Positions 1-16,400 of a stretch of DNA of 17,661 nucleotides are shown here, in pieces. The stretch lies in IMG/VR virus record IMGVR_UViG_2695420658_000002; one strand, 5' to 3'. This DNA is from a virus. Lineage: Duplodnaviria > Heunggongvirae > Uroviricota > Caudoviricetes. The notes beneath the pieces are model-generated. The model was not told the DNA's origin. It did no database searches and worked only from the letters and a program-made list of their open reading frames with translations. Within the stretch, counting starts at the first letter, position 1, and every line of letters starts with the position of its first letter. The position numbers and the translations under genes were made by a program.

Positions 1-889
1 CCACATCTGCCGCACCAAGACGTTTCCCCATGCCATAGCGCGGATGGGTCAGCATATCCCACAGACACCAGGCCATGTTGTTGCTGTATGCTGGCTTAAG
101 CGTTCCGTCCCAGATACCGCTGTATTGCCGCGTCTGCGGGTTATAGTTCGACGGCACCTGCAGAATGCGCCCGCGAAGATGATAATTACGGCTCACCTGC
201 TGGCTGCCGAACTGCTCCGAATCCACCTGTACGCCGACCAGTGCCGTGTTCGGGTAGCACTGTTTCACATCGATGATTTCGGTGTACGACGACCAGAGCG
301 TTTTGTTCTGCAGCTGGTCTGTGGTGCTGTCCGGTGTCATCCTGCGCATCCGGATATTAAACGGGCGCGGCGGCAGGTTATCCACCACCACCGAGGCCAG
401 ATACTGCGAGGTGGTTTTGCCCTTAATGGTGATGTCTTTTTCCGTCACCCAGCCACCGTTACGCTGTATCTGAACCAGCAGGCGAACTTCAGACGGATTC
501 CTGTCTCCCTTTGAGGTGGTTTCCACCAGTGCCTGTACACCGAAGGTAAAACGCAGTCGGTCAATGTTTGCCGACGTGATGGTCCGGGTGATCGGCGTGT
601 CATATTTCACTTCCGTACCCAGCACCGTCTCGGAGCCGGAGGATTCAAATCCCTCCGGCGGTGACTGCTCCTGCTCACCTGCCCGGAACACCACCGTGAC
701 GCCGGAGATGTTGGTATTCCCCTCACTGTCCAGCACCGGCGTACTGTTCAGCAGCACGCTTTTTAATCCATCCACCGGACCTTCAACCGGCCCTTCGCTG
801 ATGGCATCGATCACACTCAGCAGCTGCGTGGACTTCAGGTTGTCCTTCGCTTCGCGCGGGGTATGCCCCTTACTGCTGCCTTTACCCAT
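1..889 (-). CDS. J: Tail tip attachment / central tail fibre protein J (host specificity), N-terminal part only; gene continues beyond the window edge
   Basis: Minus-strand ATG at 889-887 with GGAG 9 nt upstream; translation begins MGKGSSKGHTPREAKDNLKSTQ, which I recognise as the lambda gpJ N-terminus; frame stays open to position 1. The ORF track omits it because no stop lies in the window. Confidence 0.85.
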   Translation of the reverse strand, partial: MGKGSSKGHTPREAKDNLKSTQLLSVIDAISEGPVEGPVDGLKSVLLNSTPVLDSEGNTNISGVTVVFRAGEQEQSPPEGFESSGSETVLGTEVKYDTPITRTITSANIDRLRFTFGVQALVETTSKGDRNPSEVRLLVQIQRNGGWVTEKDITIKGKTTSQYLASVVVDNLPPRPFNIRMRRMTPDSTTDQLQNKTLWSSYTEIIDVKQCYPNTALVGVQVDSEQFGSQQVSRNYHLRGRILQVPSNYNPQTRQYSGIWDGTLKPAYSNNMAWCLWDMLTHPRYGMGKRLGAADV

Positions 890-900
890 TCGTCATGCTC

Positions 901-929
901 CATAAACGATAAAACCGCCCGGAGGCGAT
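901..929 (-). terminator. Terminator-like hairpin plus U-rich tract in the I-J intergenic region (possible attenuator)
   Basis: Sense RNA AUCGCC-UCCG-GGCGGU (6-bp stem with one U.G pair, 4-nt loop) followed by UUUUAUCGUUUAU, then the J Shine-Dalgarno. Confidence 0.35.
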
Positions 930-949
930 TTCACATAAAACATTTTGCA

Positions 950-1621
950 TCAGCGACCAATCACCACAACCTGACCACCGTCCCCTTCGTCTGCCGTGCT
1001 GATCTCCTGAGATACCACACGTGACCCCACGCGCATTTCACCATACAGAACAGGCATAACATTGCCCTGGGCAACCATGTTATCCAGTGAGGAGAAATAG
1101 GTGTTCTGCTTACCGTTATCCGTTGTCTGTGTGCGGGGAGTTCTGGCTTTCGGTGCCAGCATCTGAGCCACACCGCCGAGCACCATACTGGCACCGAGAG
1201 AAAACAGAATGCCGGTCATACCACCGGCACCAATGGCAGCCCCCCATGCTGCAAGGGTGGCTCCGGCGGTAAAGAATGATCCGGCAATGGCGGCTGCTCC
1301 CAGGACAATCTGGAATACACCACCTGACTTGGCCCCGGCGACTCTGGGAACAATATGAATCACAGCGCCGTCAGGCAGAGCCTCATGTAACTGTGCCGTT
1401 AATCCGGACGTGCTAACATCCTGCCCGGCAATACGCACCTGATACCAGCCGTCGCTCAGCTTCTGACGAAACGCAGGGAGCTGTGTGGCCATCGCCCGGA
1501 TGGCTTCGGCACCCGTTTTCACACGAAGGTCGATGCGGCGGCCAAATCGTTGCAAATCCCCGTAAAGGCAGATGCGTGCCATGCCCGGTGACGCCAGAGG
1601 GAGTGTGTGCGTCGCTGCCAT
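950..1621 (-). CDS. I: Tail assembly protein I (ubiquitin-like N-terminal domain, Gly/Ala-rich hydrophobic middle)
   Basis: 223-aa ORF recognised as lambda gpI (MAATHTLPLASPGMARICLYGDLQRF...); 672 nt, same length as the lambda gene; ATG at 1621; overlaps K by 103 nt. Confidence 0.9.
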   Translation of the reverse strand: MAATHTLPLASPGMARICLYGDLQRFGRRIDLRVKTGAEAIRAMATQLPAFRQKLSDGWYQVRIAGQDVSTSGLTAQLHEALPDGAVIHIVPRVAGAKSGGVFQIVLGAAAIAGSFFTAGATLAAWGAAIGAGGMTGILFSLGASMVLGGVAQMLAPKARTPRTQTTDNGKQNTYFSSLDNMVAQGNVMPVLYGEMRVGSRVVSQEISTADEGDGGQVVVIGR

Positions 1622-2262
1622 TTGTCGGTATACCTCTCTCGTTTGCTCAGTTGTTCAGGAATATGGTGCAGCAGCCCGCCGTCACCGCAGTAAATGGCGG
1701 CATGATTCGGCACCGATGAACCAAAACAGCACAGCAGCACATCGCCCGGCTGCGCCGCTGACAACGGCACCTGATACAGCCCTGTGGCCTCCAGATTATC
1801 CAGATAGAGATTCTGACCGTGACGCCACCAGTCATCCTCACGATGAAAATCCGGCATCTCAATCCCCGCCAGATGGTAAGCATCCCGGAACAGCGTGTAA
1901 CAGTCCGTCACCCCGTGCTCAAAGCGCCGCCCGGTGAGATGCGGCACACAGCGGAACTTGTGAATCGCCCCCCGGCAGACCAGCCACCACGGCAAATCAC
2001 TCTGCACCTGCAGCCGCCGGTCGGCCTCACTCAGCCAGGGCAGACCACCGGGGTGGCTGTGGACCAGTGCCACAATCTCACCCTGCATCTCTGCCTGCAG
2101 CCAGTCTTCCGGCGACATACGGAAATACGCCTCCGGCTCACCGGAGATATTCACGCAGGGGAAATATCTTTCCCCCTCCGGCGTTCTTACCACGAAGCCG
2201 CACGACTCCGCTGGAGCACATCGCCGGGCGTGCGCCAGAATCGCTGATTCTGTCTCTGTCAT
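1519..2262 (-). CDS. K: Tail assembly protein K (JAB/MPN + NlpC/P60 domains); long form from the ATG 5 nt after the L stop; the reference-style start would be the internal ATG at 2118
   Basis: 247-aa ORF; HSHPGGLPWLSEAD JAMM motif, E-x2-G (PAESCGFVV) upstream, NlpC/P60-like Cys (TDCYTLF) and His (PNHAAIY). The C-terminal 199 aa correspond to lambda K as I recall its annotation. Confidence 0.8.
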   Translation of the reverse strand: MTETESAILAHARRCAPAESCGFVVRTPEGERYFPCVNISGEPEAYFRMSPEDWLQAEMQGEIVALVHSHPGGLPWLSEADRRLQVQSDLPWWLVCRGAIHKFRCVPHLTGRRFEHGVTDCYTLFRDAYHLAGIEMPDFHREDDWWRHGQNLYLDNLEATGLYQVPLSAAQPGDVLLCCFGSSVPNHAAIYCGDGGLLHHIPEQLSKRERYTDKWQRRTHSLWRHRAWHASAFTGICNDLAAASTFV

Positions 2263-2267
2263 GGGAT

Positions 2268-2966
2268 TTACTGCGAAAGTTTGTTAATGGAAAGGAAGCC
2301 GCCAAAGTTGCCGACGTTATTGCGAAACTTACAGCCACTCAGGCATTTGCTGCATTTATCCTTCGTGATGTCGGACGTTGGCTGGTCATATTCATCCGCG
2401 ACCGCCGGACCGTGATAACCGCACTCATCGCCGCGATAGGTCCAGGTGCAGGTGTTGGCCAGCATGATACGTCCCGGAAAAACAGCGCCATCTGTTTCCG
2501 TCGGCGTGGACAGTACAAAAGAGGCACTCACCGCGCTCAGTTCGCTGCACTGCTCAATGCGCCAGCGGCTGATCACCTCCTGCTCCGGATCGGCGTCACT
2601 GTTTCCGTTGACGAAGTTCACCGCATCCAGAAAACGGGCGTAAACCTTACGCCGGACCACCGTTCCGCCGACCAGACTCTGTAGATCTTCCGCCATCCCG
2701 GTGACCATACCGTACAGGTTAGAAACCATCAGCGTGGGGCGCGTACTGGTGCCTTTGCCATTCAGTTCAAAACCACTCCCCTGAATGGGATACGGCTGAT
2801 ACTGTCGCCCCTGCCAGGTGACCGGCTCACCTTTTTCGTTCTGCTCATTACAGAAAAAATAACGTTCTCCACCGACCTCTGTCAGATCGATTTCCCAGAG
2901 CACCACGCTGGCCGACTGCTCCGCACGGGTGCATTCATTCAGTGTTTCCTGCCGGATATCCTGCAT
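2268..2966 (-). CDS. L: Tail tip protein L (C-terminal Cys cluster)
   Basis: 232-aa ORF recognised as lambda gpL (MQDIRQETLNECTRAEQSASVVLWEIDL...); 699 nt as in lambda; start ATG overlaps the M stop by 1 nt (TGATG). Confidence 0.9.
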   Translation of the reverse strand: MQDIRQETLNECTRAEQSASVVLWEIDLTEVGGERYFFCNEQNEKGEPVTWQGRQYQPYPIQGSGFELNGKGTSTRPTLMVSNLYGMVTGMAEDLQSLVGGTVVRRKVYARFLDAVNFVNGNSDADPEQEVISRWRIEQCSELSAVSASFVLSTPTETDGAVFPGRIMLANTCTWTYRGDECGYHGPAVADEYDQPTSDITKDKCSKCLSGCKFRNNVGNFGGFLSINKLSQ

Positions 2967-3295
2967 CAGTTCACCACCTGTTCAAACTCTGCGCTGAACT
3001 CAACACGCAGCATACTGACCCGCGACGACCATTTTGCGCAGGTCACCTTTATCTGCCGCCACTCATAAGGCGGCGTCCACAGAAAGGCTTTCCAGCCCCC
3101 GTGCTCTTCCAGAAACGACTCCAGTACCATGGCCTCCTCACGGGGGACAGAAAGCGTCACGCTGTACGTTTTCAGGTTGGCATTCAGCCCGGCAGGCGCT
3201 CGCTGGGAATAGCCATCACCAAAGCGCACCTTTCTTACAGAAGGGGCCGAAGCCACATCCATACCGGGTTTCACTTTCCAGCGGAAGGTTTTCAT
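2966..3295 (-). CDS. M: Tail tip protein M
   Basis: 109-aa ORF recognised as lambda gpM (MKTFRWKVKPGMDVASAPSVRKVRFGDGYSQRAPAGLNANLKTYSV...); 330 nt as in lambda; 4-nt overlap with the H stop. Confidence 0.9.
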   Translation of the reverse strand: MKTFRWKVKPGMDVASAPSVRKVRFGDGYSQRAPAGLNANLKTYSVTLSVPREEAMVLESFLEEHGGWKAFLWTPPYEWRQIKVTCAKWSSRVSMLRVEFSAEFEQVVN

Positions 3296-5911
3296 CGTCC
3301 ACCTCCGGAGAACAGGCCACCATCACGCATCTGTGTCTGAATTTCATCACGGGCACCCTTGCGGGCCATGTCATACACGGCCTTCATCATCTGTGGACCT
3401 GGCAGACCATTCGTACCGTCGTTCTGAATCACCACGTGATTGTTCTGATTAAAATTAATGCCTTCAGCCCGCCGCATCTGCGCCGGACTTCCGGCACCGC
3501 CCACATAACCACCTTCCGCATAGCCGCGCATCAGCCGGTAGAGATTCCCCACGCCAATCCGGCTGGTTGCCTCCTTCGTGAAGACAAATTCACCACGGTG
3601 AACAATCCCCGCTGGCTCATATTTGCCGCCGGTTCCCGTAAATCCCCCGGTTGCAAAATGGAATTTCACCGCAGCGGCCTGAATGGCTGTACCACCTGAC
3701 GCGGATGCGCCGCCACCAACAGCCCCGCCAATGGCGCTGCCGATACTCCCGACAATCCCCACCATTGCCTGCTTAAGCAGAATTTCTGTCATCATGGACA
3801 GCACGGAGCGGGTGAAGCTGCGCCAGTTCTGTTCACTGCCGGTCAGCATCGCCGCCATATTCTGTGCAATACCATCAAAGGTCTGCGTGGCTGCACTTTT
3901 AACCTGTGACATACTGTCCGTGGCGCTCTCTTCCCACTCACTCCAGCCGGACTTCAGGCCTGCCATCCAGCTCCCGCGAAGCTGGTCTTCAGCCGCCCAG
4001 GTCTTTTTCTGCTCTGACATGACGTTATTCAGCGCCAGAGGATTATCGCCATACTGTTCCTTCAGGCGCTGTTCCGTGGCTTCCCGCGCTGCCTGCCGGT
4101 CAGTCAGCCCCCGGTTTTTCGCATCAATGGCTGCCCGTTTTGCCCGTTGCTGCTGTGCGAATTTATCCGCCTGCTGCGCCAGCGCATTCAGGTGCTCCNN
4201 NNNNNNNNNNNNNNNNNNNNNNNNNNNNNNNNNNNNNNNNNNNNNNNNNNNNNNNNNNNNNNNNNNNNNNNNNNNNNNNNNNNNNNNNNNNNNNNNNNNN
4301 NNNNNNNNNNNNNNNNNNNNNNNNNNNNNNNNNNNNNNNNNNNNNNNNNNNNNNNNNNNNNNNNNNNNNNNNNNNNNNNNNNNNNNNNNNNNNNNNNNNN
4401 NNNNNNNNNNNNNNNNNNNNNNNNNNNNNNNNNNNNNNNNNNNNNNNNNNNNNNNNNNNNNNNNNNNNNNNNNNNNNNNNNNNNNNNNNNNNNNNNNNNN
4501 NNNNNNNNNNNNNNNNNNNNNNNNNNNNNNNCTTCACGCCGGACTGTTTCGGCTTTTTCAGCGTCGCTTCATAATCCTTTTTCGCCGCCGCCATCAGCGT
4601 GTTGTAATCTGCCTGCAGGATTTTTCCGTCTTTCAGTGCCTTGTTCAGTTCTTCCTGACGGGCGGTATATTTCTCCAGCGGCGTCTGCAGCCGTTCGTAA
4701 GCCTTCTGCGCCTCTTCGGTATATTTCAGCCGTGACGCTTCGGTATCGCTCTGCTGCTGCGCATTTTTGTCCTGTTGACGCTGTTGATCTACCCTCTTTT
4801 GGGCTGCATCCCGCTCCAGGCGTTTTTTTTCACGATCATCCCAGTAACGCGCCCGTGCTTCATCGTTAACGAAATAATCATCCTTGCGCAGATTCCAGAT
4901 GTCGTCTGCTTTCTTAAACGCAGCCTCTGCCTTAATCAGCATCTCCTGCGCGGTATCAGGACGACCAATATCCAGCACCGCATCCCACATGGATTTGAAT
5001 GCACGTGCAGTCCTGTCTGCCCAGGTCTCCAGCGTGCCCATGTTCTCTTTCAGGCGGCGGGTCTGGTCATCAAACCCTTTCGTTGCGGCCTCGTTCGCCG
5101 CCTGCAATGCCCCGGCTTCATCGCCGGAACGCTGCAACTGAGCAACATACGCAATCTGCTCCGCCGTCACGTTATGGAACTGGCGTGCCATCGCCGTCAG
5201 CCCCGACGTCGGGTCTGTGGTCAGCTTCCCGAAGGCTTCAGCGACCTTGTCCACCTCCACGCCGGATGCATAGGAGAAACGCGCCACACTCTGGCTGATG
5301 GACGCAATCTGAGCCTCACCGCTTACCCCCGCCTTAACCAGTGCGCTGAGTGACTCGCTGGTCTGGTTAAACGTCAGCCCTGCCGCCTGCCCGGCTCTGG
5401 ACAGGACCAGCATACGATCTGCCGTCAGTCCCGCCTGATTACCGGAAAGGACCAGCGTTTTGTTGAAATCGGACAGGGTTGAGTTGCCCTGATACCAGGC
5501 ATACGCCAGCGCACCGGTCGCCACCGCCAGCGAGGTGGCCCCCACCATCGGCAGGGTGATCGCGCCGGCAAGCCCCCTGAACATGGGGATCATCCCGCCG
5601 AAGGAGTCCTTAACCTGACCACCCTGTTGCAGCAGGATCAGCCAGGGATTCTGCCCCCCTGCAAGCTGCGTGGCCACGTCGGTGAACTGTGCAGGCAGCA
5701 TACGCATGGCGGCTTTATACTGCCCGACGGAAATCCCCGCTTTCTGTGCAGCCAGCGCCTGTCGGCTCAGCGACTGTTCAACGACTGCCGCTGTTTTTTT
5801 CGCATCACTTTCCGTACCGGAAAAATGACGCCTGACTCTGGCCATCTGCTCGTCAAATCTGGCCGCATCCAGACTCAAATCAACGACCAGATCGCCTACC
5901 GGTTCAGCCAT
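3292..5911 (-). CDS. H: Tail tape measure protein H, interrupted by a 333-nt N run; reading frame differs across the run
   Basis: N-terminal 460 codons (5911-4532) begin MAEPVGDLVVDLSLDAARFDEQMARV...; the C-terminal segment (4197-3292) reads EHLNALAQQADKFAQQQRA...MSEQKKTWAAEDQL...GGLFSGGGR. Both are recognisable as lambda gpH. H start overlaps the T stop by 8 nt, as in lambda. Confidence 0.8.
4199..4531. other. Masked/unknown sequence (333 N) inside gene H
   Basis: Run of n characters in the sequence. Confidence 1.
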
Positions 5912-6338
5912 ACCGGACTCCTCCTGCGATCCCTTCTGATACTGTCATCAGCATTACGTCATCCTCCGTCATGTCCGCCACATCCGGGGAAGCGGGGATA
6001 ACTTCATTCCCGTCCGGGCCAAAGCGGACACCTCCGGCAAGCCCTGCCGCTTTCTGCATCAGCACATCATCTTCAGGCTCTTCGTCAGCCTCGCGCCGGT
6101 TCAGCAGACTGAAATCCAGCGGATGCATCTCCGGATCGCTGAAAAACAGGCTGAGCACGGTGTACGTCAGCCCGGAAAAGTGCATATCCAGCAGAACATC
6201 ATGAAAATAATGGGTACTGTAAAAGCGGTGCCAGTCGGCATACTCCGTGGATGACATCCCGGCAAGCATGGCGCGCCAGTCGGGTCGCCCCATCTCACGC
6301 GCCAGTTTCAGGGCAAAACTCAGCTCACCGTCGAACAC
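5904..6338 (-). CDS. T: T-frame portion of the tail assembly chaperone G-T fusion, expressed by -1 programmed ribosomal frameshift from G
   Basis: 144-codon open frame in the -1 frame relative to G, overlapping the G 3' end; 435 nt as for lambda T; the slippery heptamer sits at its 5' end. Confidence 0.85.
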   Translation of the reverse strand: MFDGELSFALKLAREMGRPDWRAMLAGMSSTEYADWHRFYSTHYFHDVLLDMHFSGLTYTVLSLFFSDPEMHPLDFSLLNRREADEEPEDDVLMQKAAGLAGGVRFGPDGNEVIPASPDVADMTEDDVMLMTVSEGIAGGVRYG

Positions 6339-6742
6339 TTTCCCGCAGAAACAGGCTCTGCAGGCCCGGCGTCCTCTGCCTGTTCAGGAGCATCATTCAC
6401 CACAAACTCATACATACCGGACAGCCGGTACACCACGTTTTCAGCATGAGAAATTGCCTCTGTGGGCCAGGTGGTAAGCACTTCCTGCTCAATCTGTTTA
6501 ACGGCTTCATTCATGGACGGCATCTGCGTCTTCTTCGGATGGTTATGCCACAGGGACATCGCAACCACAAAAGCGCCGGTTCTGATGGCGTCTTCCACAG
6601 TAAACTTCCGGTTGCTGTCTGACTCCGCCTGTTCTGCCTGCCGTTTCATCAGGTCGAGATGCTCAATACGCTGCAGGGCTGACAGTTCAGAAAGCGTGAC
6701 GGTCACACCGTTATGTTCAAATGATTCGGTTTTCAGGAACAT
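6320..6742 (-). CDS. G: Tail assembly chaperone G
   Basis: 140-aa ORF recognised as lambda gpG (MFLKTESFEHNGVTVTLSELSALQRIEHLDLMKRQAEQAE...); 423 nt as in lambda. Confidence 0.9.
   Translation of the reverse strand: MFLKTESFEHNGVTVTLSELSALQRIEHLDLMKRQAEQAESDSNRKFTVEDAIRTGAFVVAMSLWHNHPKKTQMPSMNEAVKQIEQEVLTTWPTEAISHAENVVYRLSGMYEFVVNDAPEQAEDAGPAEPVSAGKCSTVS
6338..6344 (-). promoter_or_regulatory. -1 programmed ribosomal frameshift slippery site G_GGA_AAG (G to G-T)
   Basis: Minus-strand sense GGGAAAG (plus-strand ctttccc at 6338-6344), 5 codons upstream of the G stop at 6320-6322. Confidence 0.8.
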
Positions 6743-6757
6743 CGCTGACTCTCCGGA

Positions 6758-7498
6758 TTAACTGGCGGTGACGTTGATTTCTGCAACCGCAGCAAACTCA
6801 CCATTACCAGATACGACCGGAATGTTGACCTTGCCTGCAGCAACACCTTTCACGGTGATGGTCATACCACTGACCGACACGGTGGCTTTTGTTTTATCCG
6901 CAGACACCGCACGGAAGCTCTTGTCGGTTGCGCCATCCGGCTGGAATGCCACGGTCAGCGTGGTGCTCTGCCCTTTCACTACGGAAGCACTGGCGGGTGT
7001 CACCGTCATGCCGGTCGTCGCCGTCACCGTGCTGCGATCTTCTGCCATCGACGGACGTCCCACATTGGTGACCTTCACCGTGCGGGTAATCACCTCCTTC
7101 GCCGTCACCGCCTTACCGATACTGCTGACCCAGCCACGGAACACATCGACCGTGCCGTTCGGGAAGCGGATTTTATAGGCACGGGTATCACCTTCATTAA
7201 ACCACGCCAGCAGCGCCTGCTGCCCCTGCTCTCCGGGCATCCACGCCAGCGTGAAGCTGGTATCTCCGGCAGATTTCTGCCCCTGCCCGGTCGCAGTCCA
7301 GTCTGCATCTTCATCATCGAGATAGCTGTCGTCATAGGACTCAGCGGTCAGTTCGCCGGGCGTCAGGTCTTTAACTTTTGCCAGACGCGACCAGTCAACG
7401 TCTGAAAGCGGGTTCGCATAAGGGTCACCGCTCCCCTTATAAACCCACAGGGTGGTCCCGGCACCTTTCACCGGCATTGTAGGATTTGGTACAGGCAT
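6758..7498 (-). CDS. V: Major tail tube protein V
   Basis: Translation from the ATG at 7498 begins [31 protein letters not shown] (lambda gpV); 741 nt as in lambda. The track ORF begins 10 codons upstream at 7528. Confidence 0.9.
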
Positions 7499-7505
7499 AG
7501 CGTCC

Positions 7506-7901
7506 TCACATTTCATAGATAATGACATAAGTCAGATCGGCTGAACTCCACAGGCCCGCATCATCGTCGCGCCGGTAGTCATAGCCGCTGGCCACCATAC
7601 TGGTGATCAAATCTGACAGTGCCGGGATATCGCTCATCACAGGATAAATCCGGGACTCCATCCACGAATCCAGCTCTGAATCCGGCACCTGAGCAGGCAG
7701 GAAAACTTCAATATGCAGCTCCGCCTGCCAGGTATCGCTGTCCAGCTCTTCGCCCGTGTATTCAGCGCCGGTGAGATAAACGGCAATTGCCGGAAAATCT
7801 TCCTCATCAAAAACAGCGGGGCGACCATCAAAAAGCGTCGCCCCGGTGTCATGCTTCTCCAGTGCATCCAGTACGGCTGCACGGAGTTCAGTATGTTTCA
7901 T
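7506..7901 (-). CDS. U: Tail terminator protein U
   Basis: 131-aa ORF recognised as lambda gpU ([43 protein letters not shown]...); ATGA overlap with the Z stop. Confidence 0.9.
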
Positions 7902-8476
7902 CGCTTTATTACCATTCTCAGTTGATGCTGCAGCGCATAGCCCAGCTCTTTCGGAAGACGTTCACGCCGTATCCGTTCAATATTCTGTTTAAACGCCGTG
8001 GTCAGCGGCACCGCCATCGGGATTTTCACCACATCAATGGGGTAACGGTTTTTCCCGGCCACACGCTGCATAACATGCCACCGGCCGTTTTTCAGTTGCT
8101 GAATAAACGCGCCGGGAATACGACGGTTACCCACCACAAGCACGCTGCCGCCACCTTTCAGGGATGAACGCTGCCCCTTTTTATGACGCCTGCGGCGGGA
8201 CAGGACAACCCGCGCATTACCCAGCTTGATTACGGGCAAATCCCCCCGGTTAACTTTGATTCTGGCCTGCGGATTTTTGACCGTGGCCCTTTTCAGCCTG
8301 GCCCTTTCCTTTACCAGTTTCCGGCGTACCTTTGTCTCACGGGCAACCTGTGACGCAGACTGCGATATCGCGGATGAAGCAACGCGGTTAATGGCCATTG
8401 CGGCGGCACCGGGCACCGCCGTTTTGCTGATACGGCTGAGGTTTTCAACGGCCTGCTCAAGACCTTTTATGGCCAT
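7898..8476 (-). CDS. Z: Tail completion protein Z
   Basis: 192-aa ORF recognised as lambda gpZ (MAIKGLEQAVENLSRISKTAVPGAAAMAINRVASSAISQ...); 579 nt as in lambda. Confidence 0.9.
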   Translation of the reverse strand: MAIKGLEQAVENLSRISKTAVPGAAAMAINRVASSAISQSASQVARETKVRRKLVKERARLKRATVKNPQARIKVNRGDLPVIKLGNARVVLSRRRRHKKGQRSSLKGGGSVLVVGNRRIPGAFIQQLKNGRWHVMQRVAGKNRYPIDVVKIPMAVPLTTAFKQNIERIRRERLPKELGYALQHQLRMVIKR

Positions 8477-8487
8477 ACATCCCCCTT

Positions 8488-8841
8488 TCAGCGGCGACGG
8501 TTAACGGCAGGCGGTACGCCCCGTCCAAGCCAGAGATGACAACTTCCGCCATCATCCGGCGAAACCCGATCTACCCAGAAATTTTCCTCACCGATGGTCA
8601 GCGTGTCTCCACGCCGCAGCTGCCGCACCTCATCAGTCCGGACAAACAGGGACGGGCTGGAGCCTTCAACGCGCACGCCCTGTCCGGCATAGCTGATATT
8701 TTCAGGGTCATCAAAAACACCACGTATCACCGCACCTGACTGCTCACCGGATGTCATGGTGGCTGACGTTCCCATGTACCCGCGTATCGTTTCATCGGCG
8801 CGGGCAATGGCAGCATCGAACAGGTTATCGAAATCAGCCAC
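8488..8841 (-). CDS. FII: Head-tail joining protein FII
   Basis: 117-aa ORF recognised as lambda gpFII (MADFDNLFDAAIARADETIRGYMGTSATMTSGEQ...); first codon is GTG, with GGGAGG 5 nt upstream. Confidence 0.9.
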   Translation of the reverse strand: MADFDNLFDAAIARADETIRGYMGTSATMTSGEQSGAVIRGVFDDPENISYAGQGVRVEGSSPSLFVRTDEVRQLRRGDTLTIGEENFWVDRVSPDDGGSCHLWLGRGVPPAVNRRR

Positions 8842-8852
8842 AGCGCCTCCCG

Positions 8853-9251
8853 TTATTGCATTCTGGCCAGGCCGCGCTCTGTCATTTCGGCTGCCACACC
8901 GGCAGAGACACGAAACGCCGTTCCCGGCAGCACAAATGCCACAGGTTTATCCCGCGTGGCGTGAAGTGCATCAGTATGCAGCGTCACCAGTGCCACGACC
9001 GTGACCAGTTCAGCCGTATCCTGAATCACGGTATCCGGCTGCGCTGATACCACCTCATTTTCATGCCCGGTCAGCACATTTTCCCGGCTGAGAGGGGTGT
9101 CCTGACCGGCAGTTTCATCCGTGTCATCAAGCTCTTCTTCCAGCTCTGCCACACGAAGCGCCAGTTCTTCTTTCGTTCCCGTCAAACTGACATCGCGGTT
9201 CAATTGCTCACCCAGCTCCTGAAGACGGGCAATCAGTTCATCTTTCGTCAT
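8853..9251 (-). CDS. FI: DNA packaging / head assembly protein FI
   Basis: Translation from the ATG at 9251 (GGAGGAG 4 nt upstream) begins MTKDELIARLQELGEQLNRDVSLTGTKEELALRVAELEEELDDTDE, recognised as lambda gpFI; 399 nt as in lambda. The track's upstream start at 9290 lies inside the E-FI hairpin. Confidence 0.9.
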   Translation of the reverse strand: MTKDELIARLQELGEQLNRDVSLTGTKEELALRVAELEEELDDTDETAGQDTPLSRENVLTGHENEVVSAQPDTVIQDTAELVTVVALVTLHTDALHATRDKPVAFVLPGTAFRVSAGVAAEMTERGLARMQ

Positions 9252-9272
9252 GAACTCCTCCACAGAGAGAAA

Positions 9273-9290
9273 ATGGCCCCGAAGGGCCAT
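9273..9290 (-). terminator. Stable hairpin with UUCG tetraloop immediately 3' of the E stop (possible attenuator or mRNA stabiliser)
   Basis: Sense RNA AUGGCCC-UUCG-GGGCCAU (perfect 7-bp stem) followed by UUUCUCUCU and then the FI Shine-Dalgarno. Confidence 0.45.
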
Positions 9291-9292
9291 GA

Positions 9293-10318
9293 TTACGCCA
9301 GTTGAACGGACACGAACTCATCAGGATCAGCCAGCAGCATCAGCGGTGCTGACTGAATCATGGTGAACTCACGCGCCGGATCGCCGGTGGTCACCCAGTT
9401 TTTCGGGTAACGGGCAGAAGCGTTAATGCCTTCGCGCTGTGCGTCCGCATCCTGAATGCAGCCATAGGTGCGCAGACCGCGAGCCTGAGTGTTCCCCAGC
9501 ACCATCGTGTTGTCCGGCAGGAAGTTCTTTTTGACGCCGTTTTCCACGTACTGTCCGGAATACACGACGATGGCCACATCGCCATACATTCCCTTATAGG
9601 ACACCGCTTTGCCCAGGTCTTTTACCGCTGTCTCCAGCTCGGAATGAGAGCCGCGACGGGTATCCAGCTTCTCCTTGACGGCTTTGAAGGAACGGAACAG
9701 CGCCCAGCCTTTCGGGTCAAACACGATGATATTCACCACACCGCTGGCGTTCAGCGCGTAGGCTTCGATATCGTCGGTCGGGTCATACGTGGACTTGTCA
9801 CGCTTGCTCCACTCCGTGACGCCGGACTGTGTGATGTTGTTCGCCGCACTGCGGCCCATATCCACCTCAACCGGATCGAAGGCTTCACCGGTCATGGTGT
9901 ATTTGCCCTTGAGCACGGCAGAAACTGCCTGCATCTCTTCGACCTGAGCAATGGCCAGCTCTTCGTCACGCATGTTCTGCATGATGATGCGACGGCGGCG
10001 GTAAGCCGGGTCCGCCAGATTCTGCGGATCTTCATCCGGCAGGCGACGCAGGGTCATCTGCGGATTCACCTCATGCTTGGGTTTGACATATCCCGGCGTA
10101 AATTCAGAGGTGGAGCCGCCACGGGAACGGATAACCTCACCGGAAACAATCGGCGAAACGTACAGCGCCATGTTTACCAGTCCCGGAATTTGTGAGAGAT
10201 AGACTTTCTCCGTAGTGAAGGGATAGCTCTCACGGAAAAAGAGACGCAGAAACAGCGGATCAAACTTAAATTTCTGCTCATTTGCCGCCAGCAGCTGGGC
10301 GGTTGTGTACATCGACAT
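9293..10318 (-). CDS. E: Major capsid protein E
   Basis: Translation from the ATG at 10318 begins MSMYTTAQLLAANEQKFKFDPLFLRLFFRESYPFTTEKVYL, recognised as lambda gpE; 1026 nt as in lambda. Confidence 0.92.
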   Translation of the reverse strand: MSMYTTAQLLAANEQKFKFDPLFLRLFFRESYPFTTEKVYLSQIPGLVNMALYVSPIVSGEVIRSRGGSTSEFTPGYVKPKHEVNPQMTLRRLPDEDPQNLADPAYRRRRIIMQNMRDEELAIAQVEEMQAVSAVLKGKYTMTGEAFDPVEVDMGRSAANNITQSGVTEWSKRDKSTYDPTDDIEAYALNASGVVNIIVFDPKGWALFRSFKAVKEKLDTRRGSHSELETAVKDLGKAVSYKGMYGDVAIVVYSGQYVENGVKKNFLPDNTMVLGNTQARGLRTYGCIQDADAQREGINASARYPKNWVTTGDPAREFTMIQSAPLMLLADPDEFVSVQLA

Positions 10319-10331
10319 AAAAAAATCCCGT

Positions 10332-10352
10332 AAAAAAAGCCACACAGGCGGC
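10332..10352 (-). terminator. Terminator-like hairpin plus U7 tract in the D-E intergenic region, with a second U7 directly abutting the E start codon
   Basis: Sense RNA GCCGC-CUGU-GUGGC (5-bp stem with one G.U pair) followed by UUUUUUU, then ACGGGA, UUUUUUU and AUG of E. Confidence 0.4.
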
Positions 10353-10373
10353 CTTTAGTGATGAAGGGTAAAG

Positions 10374-10706
10374 TTAAACGATGCTGATTGCCGTTCCGGC
10401 AAACACGGTCCGTTTTTTCGTCTCGTCGCTGGCAGCCTCCGGCCAGAGCACATCCTCATAACGGAACGTGCCGGACTTGTAGAACGTCAGTGTGGTGCTG
10501 GTCTGGTCAGCAGCAACCGCAAGAATGCCAACGGCAGCACCGTCGGTGGTGCCATCCCACGCAACCAGCTTACGGGTGGAGGTGTCCAGCATCAGCGGGG
10601 TCATTGCAGGCGCTTTCGCACTCAATCCGCCGGGCGCGGTTGCGGTATGAGCCGGGTCACTATTGCCCAGCGGCTGGTAATGGGTAAAGGTTTCTTTGCT
10701 CGTCAT
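10374..10706 (-). CDS. D: Capsid decoration protein D
   Basis: Translation from the ATG at 10706 begins [35 protein letters not shown], recognised as lambda gpD; 333 nt as in lambda. The track starts 2 codons upstream (MFMTSKE). Confidence 0.9.
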
Positions 10707-10715
10707 AAACATCCC

Positions 10716-11321
10716 TTACACTGGTGTGTTCAGCAAATCGTTAACGGCATCAGATGCCGGGTTACCTGCAGCCAGCGGTGCCGGTGCCCCCTGCATCAGA
10801 CGATCCAGCGCAGTGTCACTGCGCGTCTGTGCACTCTGTGGTGCTGCGGCCAGAATACGGCGGGCCGTTTCCACGGTCATACCGGGGGTTTCGGCCAGCA
10901 CGCGTGCCTGTTCTTCGCGTCCGTGAGCCTCCTCACAGTTGAGGATCCCCATAATGCGACTGTTTTCTGCCGCAACCGCTGCGGTGATCTGCGCGTTCAC
11001 GTCCGGCTGCGCCGCGCTGGCGTTCTCGCCCTCCGTCGCTTGCACCACGCCAGTAACGTCAGCCTGCGAAGCAGTGGCTGAAACAGTTGTTGATTGAGTC
11101 TCTTTGGTCATTCGCCCTCCTGAGAGACGGGATTTACGTGCATCCAGTGCATCACGCATGACGGTGATCGCATCGGTACTGTTAACAAGTTCATCAGCCA
11201 GTCCGGCATCAATGGCCTCCTGACCGCTGTACACTGCAGCCTCGGTATCCAGCACAGCCTGCACGGACAGGCCGGTATATGCCGACACCTTCTGTGCAAA
11301 CATCCGGCGGGTTGCATCCAT
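10716..11321 (-). CDS. Nu3: Scaffolding protein Nu3, in-frame internal start within C
   Basis: In-frame ATG at 11321 (MDATRRMFAQKVSAY...) gives exactly the C-terminal 201 codons of the C frame, the arrangement known for lambda C/Nu3. Confidence 0.8.
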   Translation of the reverse strand: MDATRRMFAQKVSAYTGLSVQAVLDTEAAVYSGQEAIDAGLADELVNSTDAITVMRDALDARKSRLSGGRMTKETQSTTVSATASQADVTGVVQATEGENASAAQPDVNAQITAAVAAENSRIMGILNCEEAHGREEQARVLAETPGMTVETARRILAAAPQSAQTRSDTALDRLMQGAPAPLAAGNPASDAVNDLLNTPV

Positions 11322-12015
11322 CCGGGACTGCAATGTTTCCCGGACATCATCCGGTAGATGGCTGTAGGGGTTGCCATCCACCTTATGGCTGCCGCTGTAA
11401 ATCAGCGTGATTTCCACGCCCTGTTTCTCCAGTGCAGCGCCGTAATTACTGTGAGCCATCATGACGCCGATGGAGCCTGTCCGGGCGGTCTGCGTGACCA
11501 GACGCCGGGAGGCGGCACTGGCAAGCAGCTGACCTGCGCTGCAGTTCATGTCATTGGCCAGCGCCCATACCGGCTTTATGTCACGCACACGGGCGATGAT
11601 GTCAGCGCAGTCAAATGCTCCCGCCACCATTCCGCCCGGTGTGTCCATATCGAGCAGAATGCCGTCCACCATCGGGTCGCTGGCAGCCTGTTGCAGACGG
11701 GCGATAATGCCGTTGTAACCGGTCATCCCCGAGTACGGCTGCAGCGCCCGCGTCCGGCTGACCAGCGTGCCGGACACCGGCAGCACGGCGATGCCGTTCA
11801 TTACCTGATAACTGCGGGCCTGTCGTGGTCCGTCATCATCACCGGATAACGCCAGCGCCGCGGGTGCCTCTCCGGCAGTCAGGCTGTCGCCGGATACTGC
11901 ATCCGTCAGGCAGCTGATCCCAAGCTGGCCTGCAAGCGCACAAAAGAAAACCCGCGCATAGGCGGGTTCAAGCATCAGCGGCTCATTAAAAGCCATGCTG
12001 GCAATATGCGGGAGA

Positions 12016-12035
<20 letters not shown>
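10716..12035 (-). CDS. C: Head maturation protease C (ClpP/S49-like)
   Basis: GTG at 12035-12033 preceded by GAGGAGGAGAAGA; translation (V/M)TAELRNLPHIASMAFNEPLMLEPAYARVFF recognised as lambda gpC; 1320 nt as in lambda; 20-nt overlap with B. Confidence 0.88.
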
Positions 12036-15716
<3,681 letters not shown>

Positions 15717-15742
<26 letters not shown>

Positions 15743-16262
15743 TCAGCAACCCCGGTATCAGTTCATCCAGCGCGGCTGCTTTGTTCATGGCTTTGATGAT
15801 ATCCCGTTTCAGGAAATCAACATGTCGGTTTTCCAGTTCCGGAAAACGCCGCTGCACCGACAGGGGGATCCCGTCGAGAATACTGGCAATTTCACCTGCG
15901 ATCCGCGACAGCACGAAAGTACAGAATGCGGTTTCCACCACTTCAGCGGAGTCTCTGGCATTTTTCAGCTCCTGTGCGTCGGCCTGCGCACGCGTAAGTC
16001 GATGGCGTTCGTACTCAATAGTCCCTGGCTGGAGATCTGTCTCGCTGGCCTGCCGCAGTTCTTCAACTTCCCGGCGCAGCTTTTCGTTCTCAATTTCAGC
16101 ATCCCTTTCGGCATACCATCTTATAACGGCGGCAGAGTCATAAAGCACCTCATTACCCTTGCCACCGCCTCGCAGAACGGGCATTCCCTGTTCCTGCCAG
16201 TTCTGAATGGTACGGATACTCGCACCGAAAATGTCAGCCAGCTGCTTTTTGTTGACTTCCAT
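15717..16262 (-). CDS. Nu1: Terminase small subunit Nu1 (N-terminal HTH, binds cosB)
   Basis: 181-aa ORF recognised as lambda gpNu1 (MEVNKKQLADIFGASIRTIQNWQEQGMPVLRGGGKGNEVLYDSAAVIRWYAERDAEIENEKLRREVEEL...). Confidence 0.92.
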
Positions 16263-16284
16263 TGTTCATTCCACGGACAAAAAC

Positions 16285-16400
16285 AGAGAAAGGAAACGAC
16301 AGAGGCCAAAAAGCCCGTTTTCAGCACCTGTCGTTTCCTTTCTTTTCAGGGGGTGTTTTAAATAAAAACATTAGGTTACGGCGAAGAAGAACGGAAACGC
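16285..16400. promoter_or_regulatory. cosB: terminase (Nu1) binding region with three R-element repeats and an intervening AT-rich IHF-type bend segment
   Basis: Three copies of the CGTTTCC/GGAAACG core: agaaaggaaacgacag at 16287-16302, ctgtcgtttcctttct at 16328-16343 (inverted), cgaagaagaacggaaacg at 16382-16399; AT-rich segment at 16350-16378. Layout matches lambda cosB R1/R2/R3 as I recall it. Confidence 0.75.

Follow-up and report, generated by a model that had tools for sequence, protein, structure and literature searches.

The late operon of phage lambda is transcribed from pR′ by a Q-modified RNA polymerase that is resistant to terminators. At the boundary between the decoration and major capsid genes (D and E in lambda), putative rho-independent terminators have been annotated in N15 (AF064539, stem_loop 5980-6004), at the same place in HK225 (JQ086371, 5938-5958) and in HK629 (JQ182735, 5911-5931), the last of which does not differ from reference lambda anywhere in the gap. 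Internal terminators are recognized in the late operons of lambdoid phages more generally, where their roles are stated as not known and the proposals made for them are partial termination or a block of transcription that has not been antiterminated (bioRxiv 10.1101/2020.10.05.325894, phage L genome). The late-operon terminators of phages L and P22, which follow the procapsid module, resemble the D–E element in being likewise predicted, internal to an operon and served by a single antiterminated promoter; however, the D–E element lies upstream of the major capsid gene rather than after the capsid module, and it abuts a ribosome-binding site. A further parallel exists within lambda itself at tL2a, an early-operon terminator that provides the 3′ end of the Hfq-bound small RNA PreS (LPR1), which is encoded between ea10 and ral, LPR2 and 6S lying near pR′ (bioRxiv 10.1101/2024.10.31.621285). 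Both tL2a and the D–E element combine a GC-rich hairpin with a poly-U tract inside an antiterminated lambda operon, whereas tL2a belongs to the N-controlled early-left operon and gives rise to an Hfq-bound sRNA, nothing of which kind is reported for D–E.

Here we analyze this boundary in a stretch of 17,661 nucleotides (IMG/VR virus record IMGVR_UViG_2695420658_000002; herein the window), which carries a lambda-type late (head and tail) region on its minus strand and aligns collinearly with lambda 44-16393 (96-98% identity). The window shares with N15, HK225 and HK629 the position of the hairpin, its GCCGC/GCGGC core, the U7 that follows, the downstream (A/U)CGGGA and the E start. It differs from all three in having U rather than C at 10342, giving a G·U pair, and N15 and HK225 differ from it further in their loop (CUGC) and in having AAAAUCU or AAAUAUC in place of the second U7. 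The D–E hairpin is an ordinary, already annotated lambda feature, and the only peculiarity of the window at this site is a rare, wobble-preserving SNP; the hairpin nonetheless offers a clean, well-conserved test case for why antiterminated late operons keep internal terminators. We hypothesize, and consider it reasonably probable, that the D–E element is an intrinsic terminator within the late operon that would be read through by Q-modified polymerase, the same sequence also shaping the E start.

Layout of the D–E gap and its wobble allele

The D–E gap spans 55 nt (10373..10319, minus strand) and, with the flanking stop and start codons, reads in the mRNA UAA-CUUUACCCUUCAUCACU-AAAGGCCGC-CUGU-GUGGCUUUU-UUU-ACGGGA-UUUUUUU-AUG (table 1). 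RNAfold predicts a hairpin of nine pairs with a 5-bp G/C core, two G·U pairs, three A-U pairs and a 4-nt loop; the first four U of the first U7 can pair with AAAG at the stem base, and the hairpin module ends 13 nt upstream of the E AUG. The initial annotation, made from the sequence alone, had described a terminator-like hairpin with U7 in 10319-10373, and its coordinates proved exact: the element lies on the minus strand, folds as a 9-bp stem in RNAfold and is conserved, and its terminator-like character agrees with the putative rho-independent terminators entered in the HK629, HK225 and N15 records. The free-energy check suggested there gives -10.3 kcal/mol for the hairpin alone in the window and -12.2 kcal/mol in reference lambda.

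The whole 17.6-kb window contains two sense-strand U7 runs, both of them in the D–E gap and 6 nt apart. A loose terminator scan of the window returned as many antisense as sense matches, so that such scans mean little by themselves; the D–E site stands out from the other matches by its intergenic place, its uninterrupted U7 and its conservation. A consensus terminator scan of the window did not list the D–E hairpin, presumably because the extension of the stem took up the first four U. Searched against Rfam at gathering thresholds, the whole window gave zero matches, and at E-values up to 10 those overlapping the D–E site (Leu_leader at 15.1 bits and isrK at 11.6 bits, each with a threshold of 50) are noise-level.

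Aligned over the whole gap with lambda (J02459) and HK629, the window shows a single difference, at 10342, which bears out the earlier remark that the stem has a G·U where lambda has a G-C pair. The C-to-U change converts the lambda pair (G49-C42) to G·U at a cost of 1.9 kcal/mol and takes the core alone from -9.3 to -7.4 kcal/mol. We compared the window over 71 nt with 2,940 copies of the D–E region drawn from 2,346 complete E. coli genomes and found no exact match; the exact window sequence with the 10342 variant occurs in 3 IMG/VR contigs (L006 among the relatives); the allele is a rare but real polymorphism. It would be expected to weaken termination modestly and to leave E translation unchanged (the computed opening energy at E shifts by 0.1 kcal/mol between G·U and G-C), and it is a natural allele suited to measuring the effect of stem strength on termination.

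Table 1. Features of the D–E gap, of the genes on either side and of the hairpin that follows E (positions in the window).
Feature	Position	Strand	Basis
Head-decoration gene D	10706..10374	-	translation; Pfam HDPD 75.8 bits; collinear with lambda D 5747-6079
D stop codon UAA	10376..10374	-	translation
17-nt spacer CUUUACCCUUCAUCACU, D stop to hairpin	10373..10357	-	read from sequence
Stem-loop	10356..10335	-	RNAfold; terminator annotation in HK629, HK225, N15; invariant GC core and hypervariable loop in relatives
Hairpin 5′ arm AAAGGCCGC	10356..10348	-	
Hairpin loop CUGU	10347..10344	-	
Hairpin 3′ arm GUGGCUUUU	10343..10335	-	
Variant base, mRNA U (+ strand A), C in reference lambda	10342	-	alignment
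First U7, putative terminator tail	10338..10332	-	directly after GUGGC
ACGGGA, Shine-Dalgarno element of E; GGGA core 7 nt before AUG	10331..10326	-	
Second U7, A/U-rich spacer from Shine-Dalgarno to E AUG	10325..10319	-	
Major capsid gene E, 341 aa (AUG 10318..10316)	10318..9293	-	translation; Pfam Phage_cap_E 239 bits; residues 1-341 of PDB 7vi9 capsid protein
Second hairpin AUGGCCC-UUCG-GGGCCAU, directly after E stop	9290..9273	-	terminator scans, -12.3 kcal/mol

Conservation and recurrence of the hairpin

Among 83 loci whose E protein is 99-100% identical (the close-relative set), the stem is almost invariant, its only changes being two C-to-U transitions that keep the pairing as wobble, and the loop reads CUGU, CUUU, AUGU or CGGU. 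U-tract lengths vary by plus or minus one (the second tract runs from U6 to U8), and the gap varies most in its 17-nt spacer, with CUUUAC, CCUGAC and CCUUAC all present among the 83 loci. Between the D stop and the hairpin, the relatives that were read (N15, 569R10, Vibrio 187P1, L122 and L123) have a spacer of at least 16 nt, so that a ribosome terminating on D would probably not cover the GC stem.

An intermediate set compares lambda with 16 N15-like lineages and yields 18 distinct lambda/N15-type sequences. Because the GC core, U tract and GGGA are almost unchanged in the 16 N15-like lineages (a core wobble change occurs in L119 and L136), while E third-codon identity to lambda is 0.56 and the 4-nt loop is different in nearly every one of them, the D–E hairpin and its U tract are under clear purifying selection. 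Across the 18 sequences, six of the seven positions of the first U7 are constant, the stem-proximal one being C in L119, and the Shine-Dalgarno (SD) element of E has two constant central G, the flanking G and A being changed in only 1 of the 18.

Within this lambda/N15-type family 97.5% of stem cells are paired, and all stem changes are one-sided and wobble-compatible. Compensatory changes, which the initial annotation had suggested seeking among lambdoid relatives, did not emerge: the alignable family holds no double-sided ones, its covariation score is not above that of shuffles and only wholly different stems appear farther out. The structure is thus supported not by formal covariation but by an invariant stem with a free loop and by the non-homologous stems of distant lineages.

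At least six distinct, unrelated stems, each followed directly by a U tract, occupy the D–E place in 569R10, Vibrio 187P1, L119, L154, L158, L159 and L165; the lineages with such stems include relatives of 569R10, two Trabulsiella prophages and several marine gammaproteobacterial and alphaproteobacterial prophages. All 7 of the lineages tested have a D homologue (Pfam HDPD) as the upstream open reading frame. Counting a hairpin where it reached -8.5 kcal/mol or better and had an accompanying T tract in the 100 nt before E, we found one in 20 of 28 non-redundant lineages in a first sample (dinucleotide shuffles: mean 0.95, maximum 3) and in 15 of 65 lineages in a second, more distant sample (capsid-gene coding windows: 0-2 of 65; shuffles: 0.55). 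Many distant D/E-type phages have no D–E hairpin and show short gaps and strong AGGAG-type SDs instead. By these counts, the hairpin is recurrent and conserved within clades, yet far from every lineage has it.

A clade with a capsid protein that shares only 40-43% identity with lambda E (L180-L191, L211, L212 and L227) has the same GGCCGC/GCGGCC core with hypervariable loops, ~20-40 nt upstream of the capsid ATG and with the tail UUUUUC(A/G)UUUCAGGAGA; retention and convergence are both candidate explanations, and either may account for the shared core. Querying with the capsid protein of Vibrio 187P1 recovered only four loci; they share one and the same hairpin and are too few for covariation analysis.

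E-like genes 95-100% identical in protein sequence to the E of the window were also encountered on short, often low-coverage contigs in GTDB species-representative genomes of unrelated taxa (Chromatium, Neobacillus, Kitasatospora, Paenibacillus, an Akkermansia MAG, Corynebacterium and others; loci L092-L107, L115, L125, L128, L133-L149 and others). The lambda-like capsid genes of those assemblies are almost certainly lambda DNA contamination.

The U tracts and the E start region

The two U tracts of the gap behave differently in relatives. In the distant lineages that have both hairpin and U tract, the first tract adjoins the stem (0-1 nt), and the SD lies anywhere from 1 to about 37 nt away from it; since it is attached to the stem and not to the SD, it is best read as a terminator tail. 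The second U7 is found only in lambda-type phages and one Erwinia prophage, with AAAAUCU or AAAUAUC at its place in N15-like phages, and the conserved part before the E AUG is an A/U-rich, unstructured spacer of about seven nt rather than a U tract. A GGA or GGAG core is present at the same distance before the capsid start in most distant relatives, and the E SD has A/U-only sequence on both sides in all lambda/N15-type relatives.

The second U7 and the ACGGGA directly before the E AUG had been noted at the outset as a weak SD arrangement, and this holds: the duplex of the E GGGA with the anti-SD is worth -4.1 kcal/mol, and only one of the 20 late genes compared has a weaker one. The opening energy at E (-20..+15) is 7.2-7.6 kcal/mol, among the lowest of the 20, and the second U7 contributes to it. 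We propose that the U tail, the short GGGA SD and the A/U-only spacer together would give an unusually open E start that offsets the weak SD pairing. E, the most abundant lambda structural protein, with a weak SD and a very open start, is a compact example of accessibility-driven translation.

A/U-rich leaders are known S1-dependent enhancers, and the U tracts had initially been suggested to act as such a pair; the fuller form of this reading is that they recruit S1 to E and that the hairpin keeps upstream RNA off the start region. The weak SD, the very open start region and the A/U-only flanks kept in all lambda/N15-type relatives speak in its favor, and a single-stranded A/U-rich tract does lie beside the SD (UUUUUUU-ACGGGA-UUUUUUU). 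However, the U tracts are not conserved as part of the initiation region: the second becomes AAAAUCU in N15-like phages, the first stays with the hairpin where the SD is separate (L208, L158), and hairpin-less lineages have strong SDs with no U tract before them. Scrambling either hairpin arm in silico, moreover, shifts the opening energy of E by at most 1.6 kcal/mol and in no consistent direction, so that disruption of the hairpin barely alters E openness; this counts against a start-site role of the hairpin, and the idea that its main purpose is to keep the E start open was rejected on the same result. The idea of an enhancer pair does not stand, and we regard the enhancer reading of the element as a whole as quite unlikely.

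The ribosome-binding site of D (UAAGGGAUGUUUAUG, 10707..10721, minus strand) contains AAGGGA and shares with that of E a weak GGGAU core and a U-rich spacer. The two most abundant head proteins thus rely on A/U-rich start regions that are readily accessible, and not on a strongly pairing SD. Accessible, A/U-rich starts at D and E fit what is generally known of translation in E. coli and of A/U-rich leaders.

Several other candidates around the E start were set aside. A long-range helix in the MFE fold, between GCAUCG at the end of D and CGAUGU at E codons 2-3, was rejected on the grounds that N15-like relatives have CAAUUU. An N-terminal extension of E from the in-frame GTG within the hairpin (10345..10343, minus strand; a 350-aa open reading frame), which OM418625 (Lambda imm21; L003 556) takes as the E start, was likewise rejected, because the GTG is absent in N15 (loop CUGC), the natural U6 and U8 variants place it out of frame and the PDB entries have 341 aa; the start in OM418625 is likely a mis-annotation. 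The T7 gene 10 leader resembles the region in preceding a highly expressed capsid gene, in being A/U-rich and in a match to UUAACUUUA, but it has a strong SD and E does not. The sequence UUAACUUUA is the T7 gene 10 epsilon motif (PMC9590205), and this 9-mer occurs exactly at 10377..10369 (minus strand), overlapping the D stop 46 nt upstream of the E AUG. It is polymorphic: more than half of the 83 close relatives read UUAACCUGA or UUAACCUUA there (CCUGA, CCUUA), and N15 lacks it; as an epsilon enhancer of E it is probably a chance match, not being retained in relatives.

Proposed termination and other possible roles of the element

The terminator reading is favored by the anatomy of the site, by how closely the U tract keeps to the stem and by the pattern of selection. 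The site has a G+C-rich, short-loop stem on the transcribed strand, an adjoining, uninterrupted U tract (about 6-8 nt) and a structure kept by selection in relatives, whether by a kept stem with a free loop or by another stem; a U tract attached to the stem is what a terminator requires, and neither a stabilizer nor an enhancer needs it. We infer that unmodified RNA polymerase would stop at the hairpin and U7, that Q-modified polymerase from pR′ would pass it in lytic growth, and that efficient transcription of E would be left to antiterminated polymerase alone. Because Q-modified polymerase resists terminators, the most likely purpose would be to keep stray or read-in transcription out of E, any attenuation being slight. 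Sampson et al. are said to have found in 1988 that late mRNA is roughly uniform across the operon and that protein ratios are set by translation initiation, which would mean little lytic termination and place the benefit of the D–E element elsewhere. The phage requires roughly as many copies of D as of E (405-420 gpD per capsid; PMC6784203), so attenuation between them would have no obvious stoichiometric logic.

Some observations count against the terminator reading, namely the lack of double-sided covariation and the hairpin's absence from many distant D/E-type phages; the GC core is also short (5-6 bp), and termination efficiency could be modest. A search of the accessible literature for 3′ ends, read-through, mutant or reporter results on the D–E hairpin found none. 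A role as terminator for antisense transcripts is unlikely in lambda, given that CTTTAGTG, with only three T, comes after the stem on the + strand.

The second hairpin, directly after the E stop, is followed by UUUCUCUCUG, which is U-rich and interrupted, and by the strong SD of FI, and it brackets E together with the D–E hairpin. The N15 and HK225 records mark the equivalent hairpin after the capsid gene as a terminator, and a GC-rich hairpin follows E in nearly all of the 28 lineages examined. Such bracketing by two GC hairpins, the second with a UUCG loop and a U tail that is no more than an interrupted one, lends some support to the view that the D–E element serves mRNA stability or processing rather than termination. 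The hairpin might block 3′-to-5′ exonucleases and shield the D-proximal mRNA after an endonuclease cut in the A/U tract, or an upstream cut might leave a 5′-terminal stem-loop guarding the E message, as in the ompA leader; the D–E and E–FI hairpins would then delimit a long-lived E segment. The single-stranded U/A-rich stretch after the stem may well resemble an RNase E target, and D2, L127, L132, L178, L179 and L190 have hairpins at the D–E place that lack a good U tract. A pure stabilizer, however, needs no U tract, and an uninterrupted one abuts the stem in most hairpin-bearing lineages; a cut within UUUUUUUACGGGAUUUUUUU would destroy the E ribosome-binding site, and a literature search for processing results at the D–E site found none. 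We consider this reading unlikely.

A hairpin with a tail of at least six U is the standard Hfq-binding 3′ module, and the D–E hairpin and U tail fit it; termination here might then yield a small regulatory RNA, a D-3′UTR fragment that binds Hfq as PreS does at tL2a. Indeed, PreS/LPR1 shows that terminators inside lambda operons can yield sRNAs, yet the Hfq-bound lambda sRNAs in the same RIL-seq data are only LPR1, LPR2 and 6S RNA, none of them at D–E (bioRxiv 10.1101/2024.10.31.621285), and among the entries listed in the RIL-seq supplementary tables there are none for D or E. The seed would have to lie in the 17-nt spacer, where the gap is least conserved, and Rfam gives matches at noise level only. 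An sRNA from this site is very improbable. More speculatively, and with little expectation that it will prove right, the D–E terminator could be an active regulatory node, either a Q-dependence checkpoint whose tail serves as the E ribosome platform or the source of a PreS-like, Hfq-binding D-3′UTR RNA; if so, the recurrence of GGCCGC/GCGGCC in the 40-43% clade would reflect a sequence-specific partner and not generic convergence on GC stems.

Other sites in the window drew attention in passing. The tape-measure gene H (3295..5911, minus strand) looks broken, with open reading frames of 582 and 242 aa in place of one of 853 aa: the first 460 residues of lambda H align with 5911..4532, whereas residues 553-853 align in another frame with 4197..3295, and the halves are separated by a divergent segment of 334 nt (276 nt in lambda). 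Possible explanations are an assembly error, a variant allele or decay to a pseudogene in a defective prophage. A terminator-like hairpin, GAACCCGCCUAUGCGCGGGUUU followed by UCUUUUG (11948..11969, minus strand), lies inside gene C, ~47 nt past the B stop (lambda ~4484). Between I and J, an intergenic hairpin, AUCGCCUCCGGGCGGU (914..929, minus strand), is followed by UUUAUCGUUU and by the SD and AUG of J, a layout like that of D–E, and its stem is similar to that of the 569R10 D–E hairpin.
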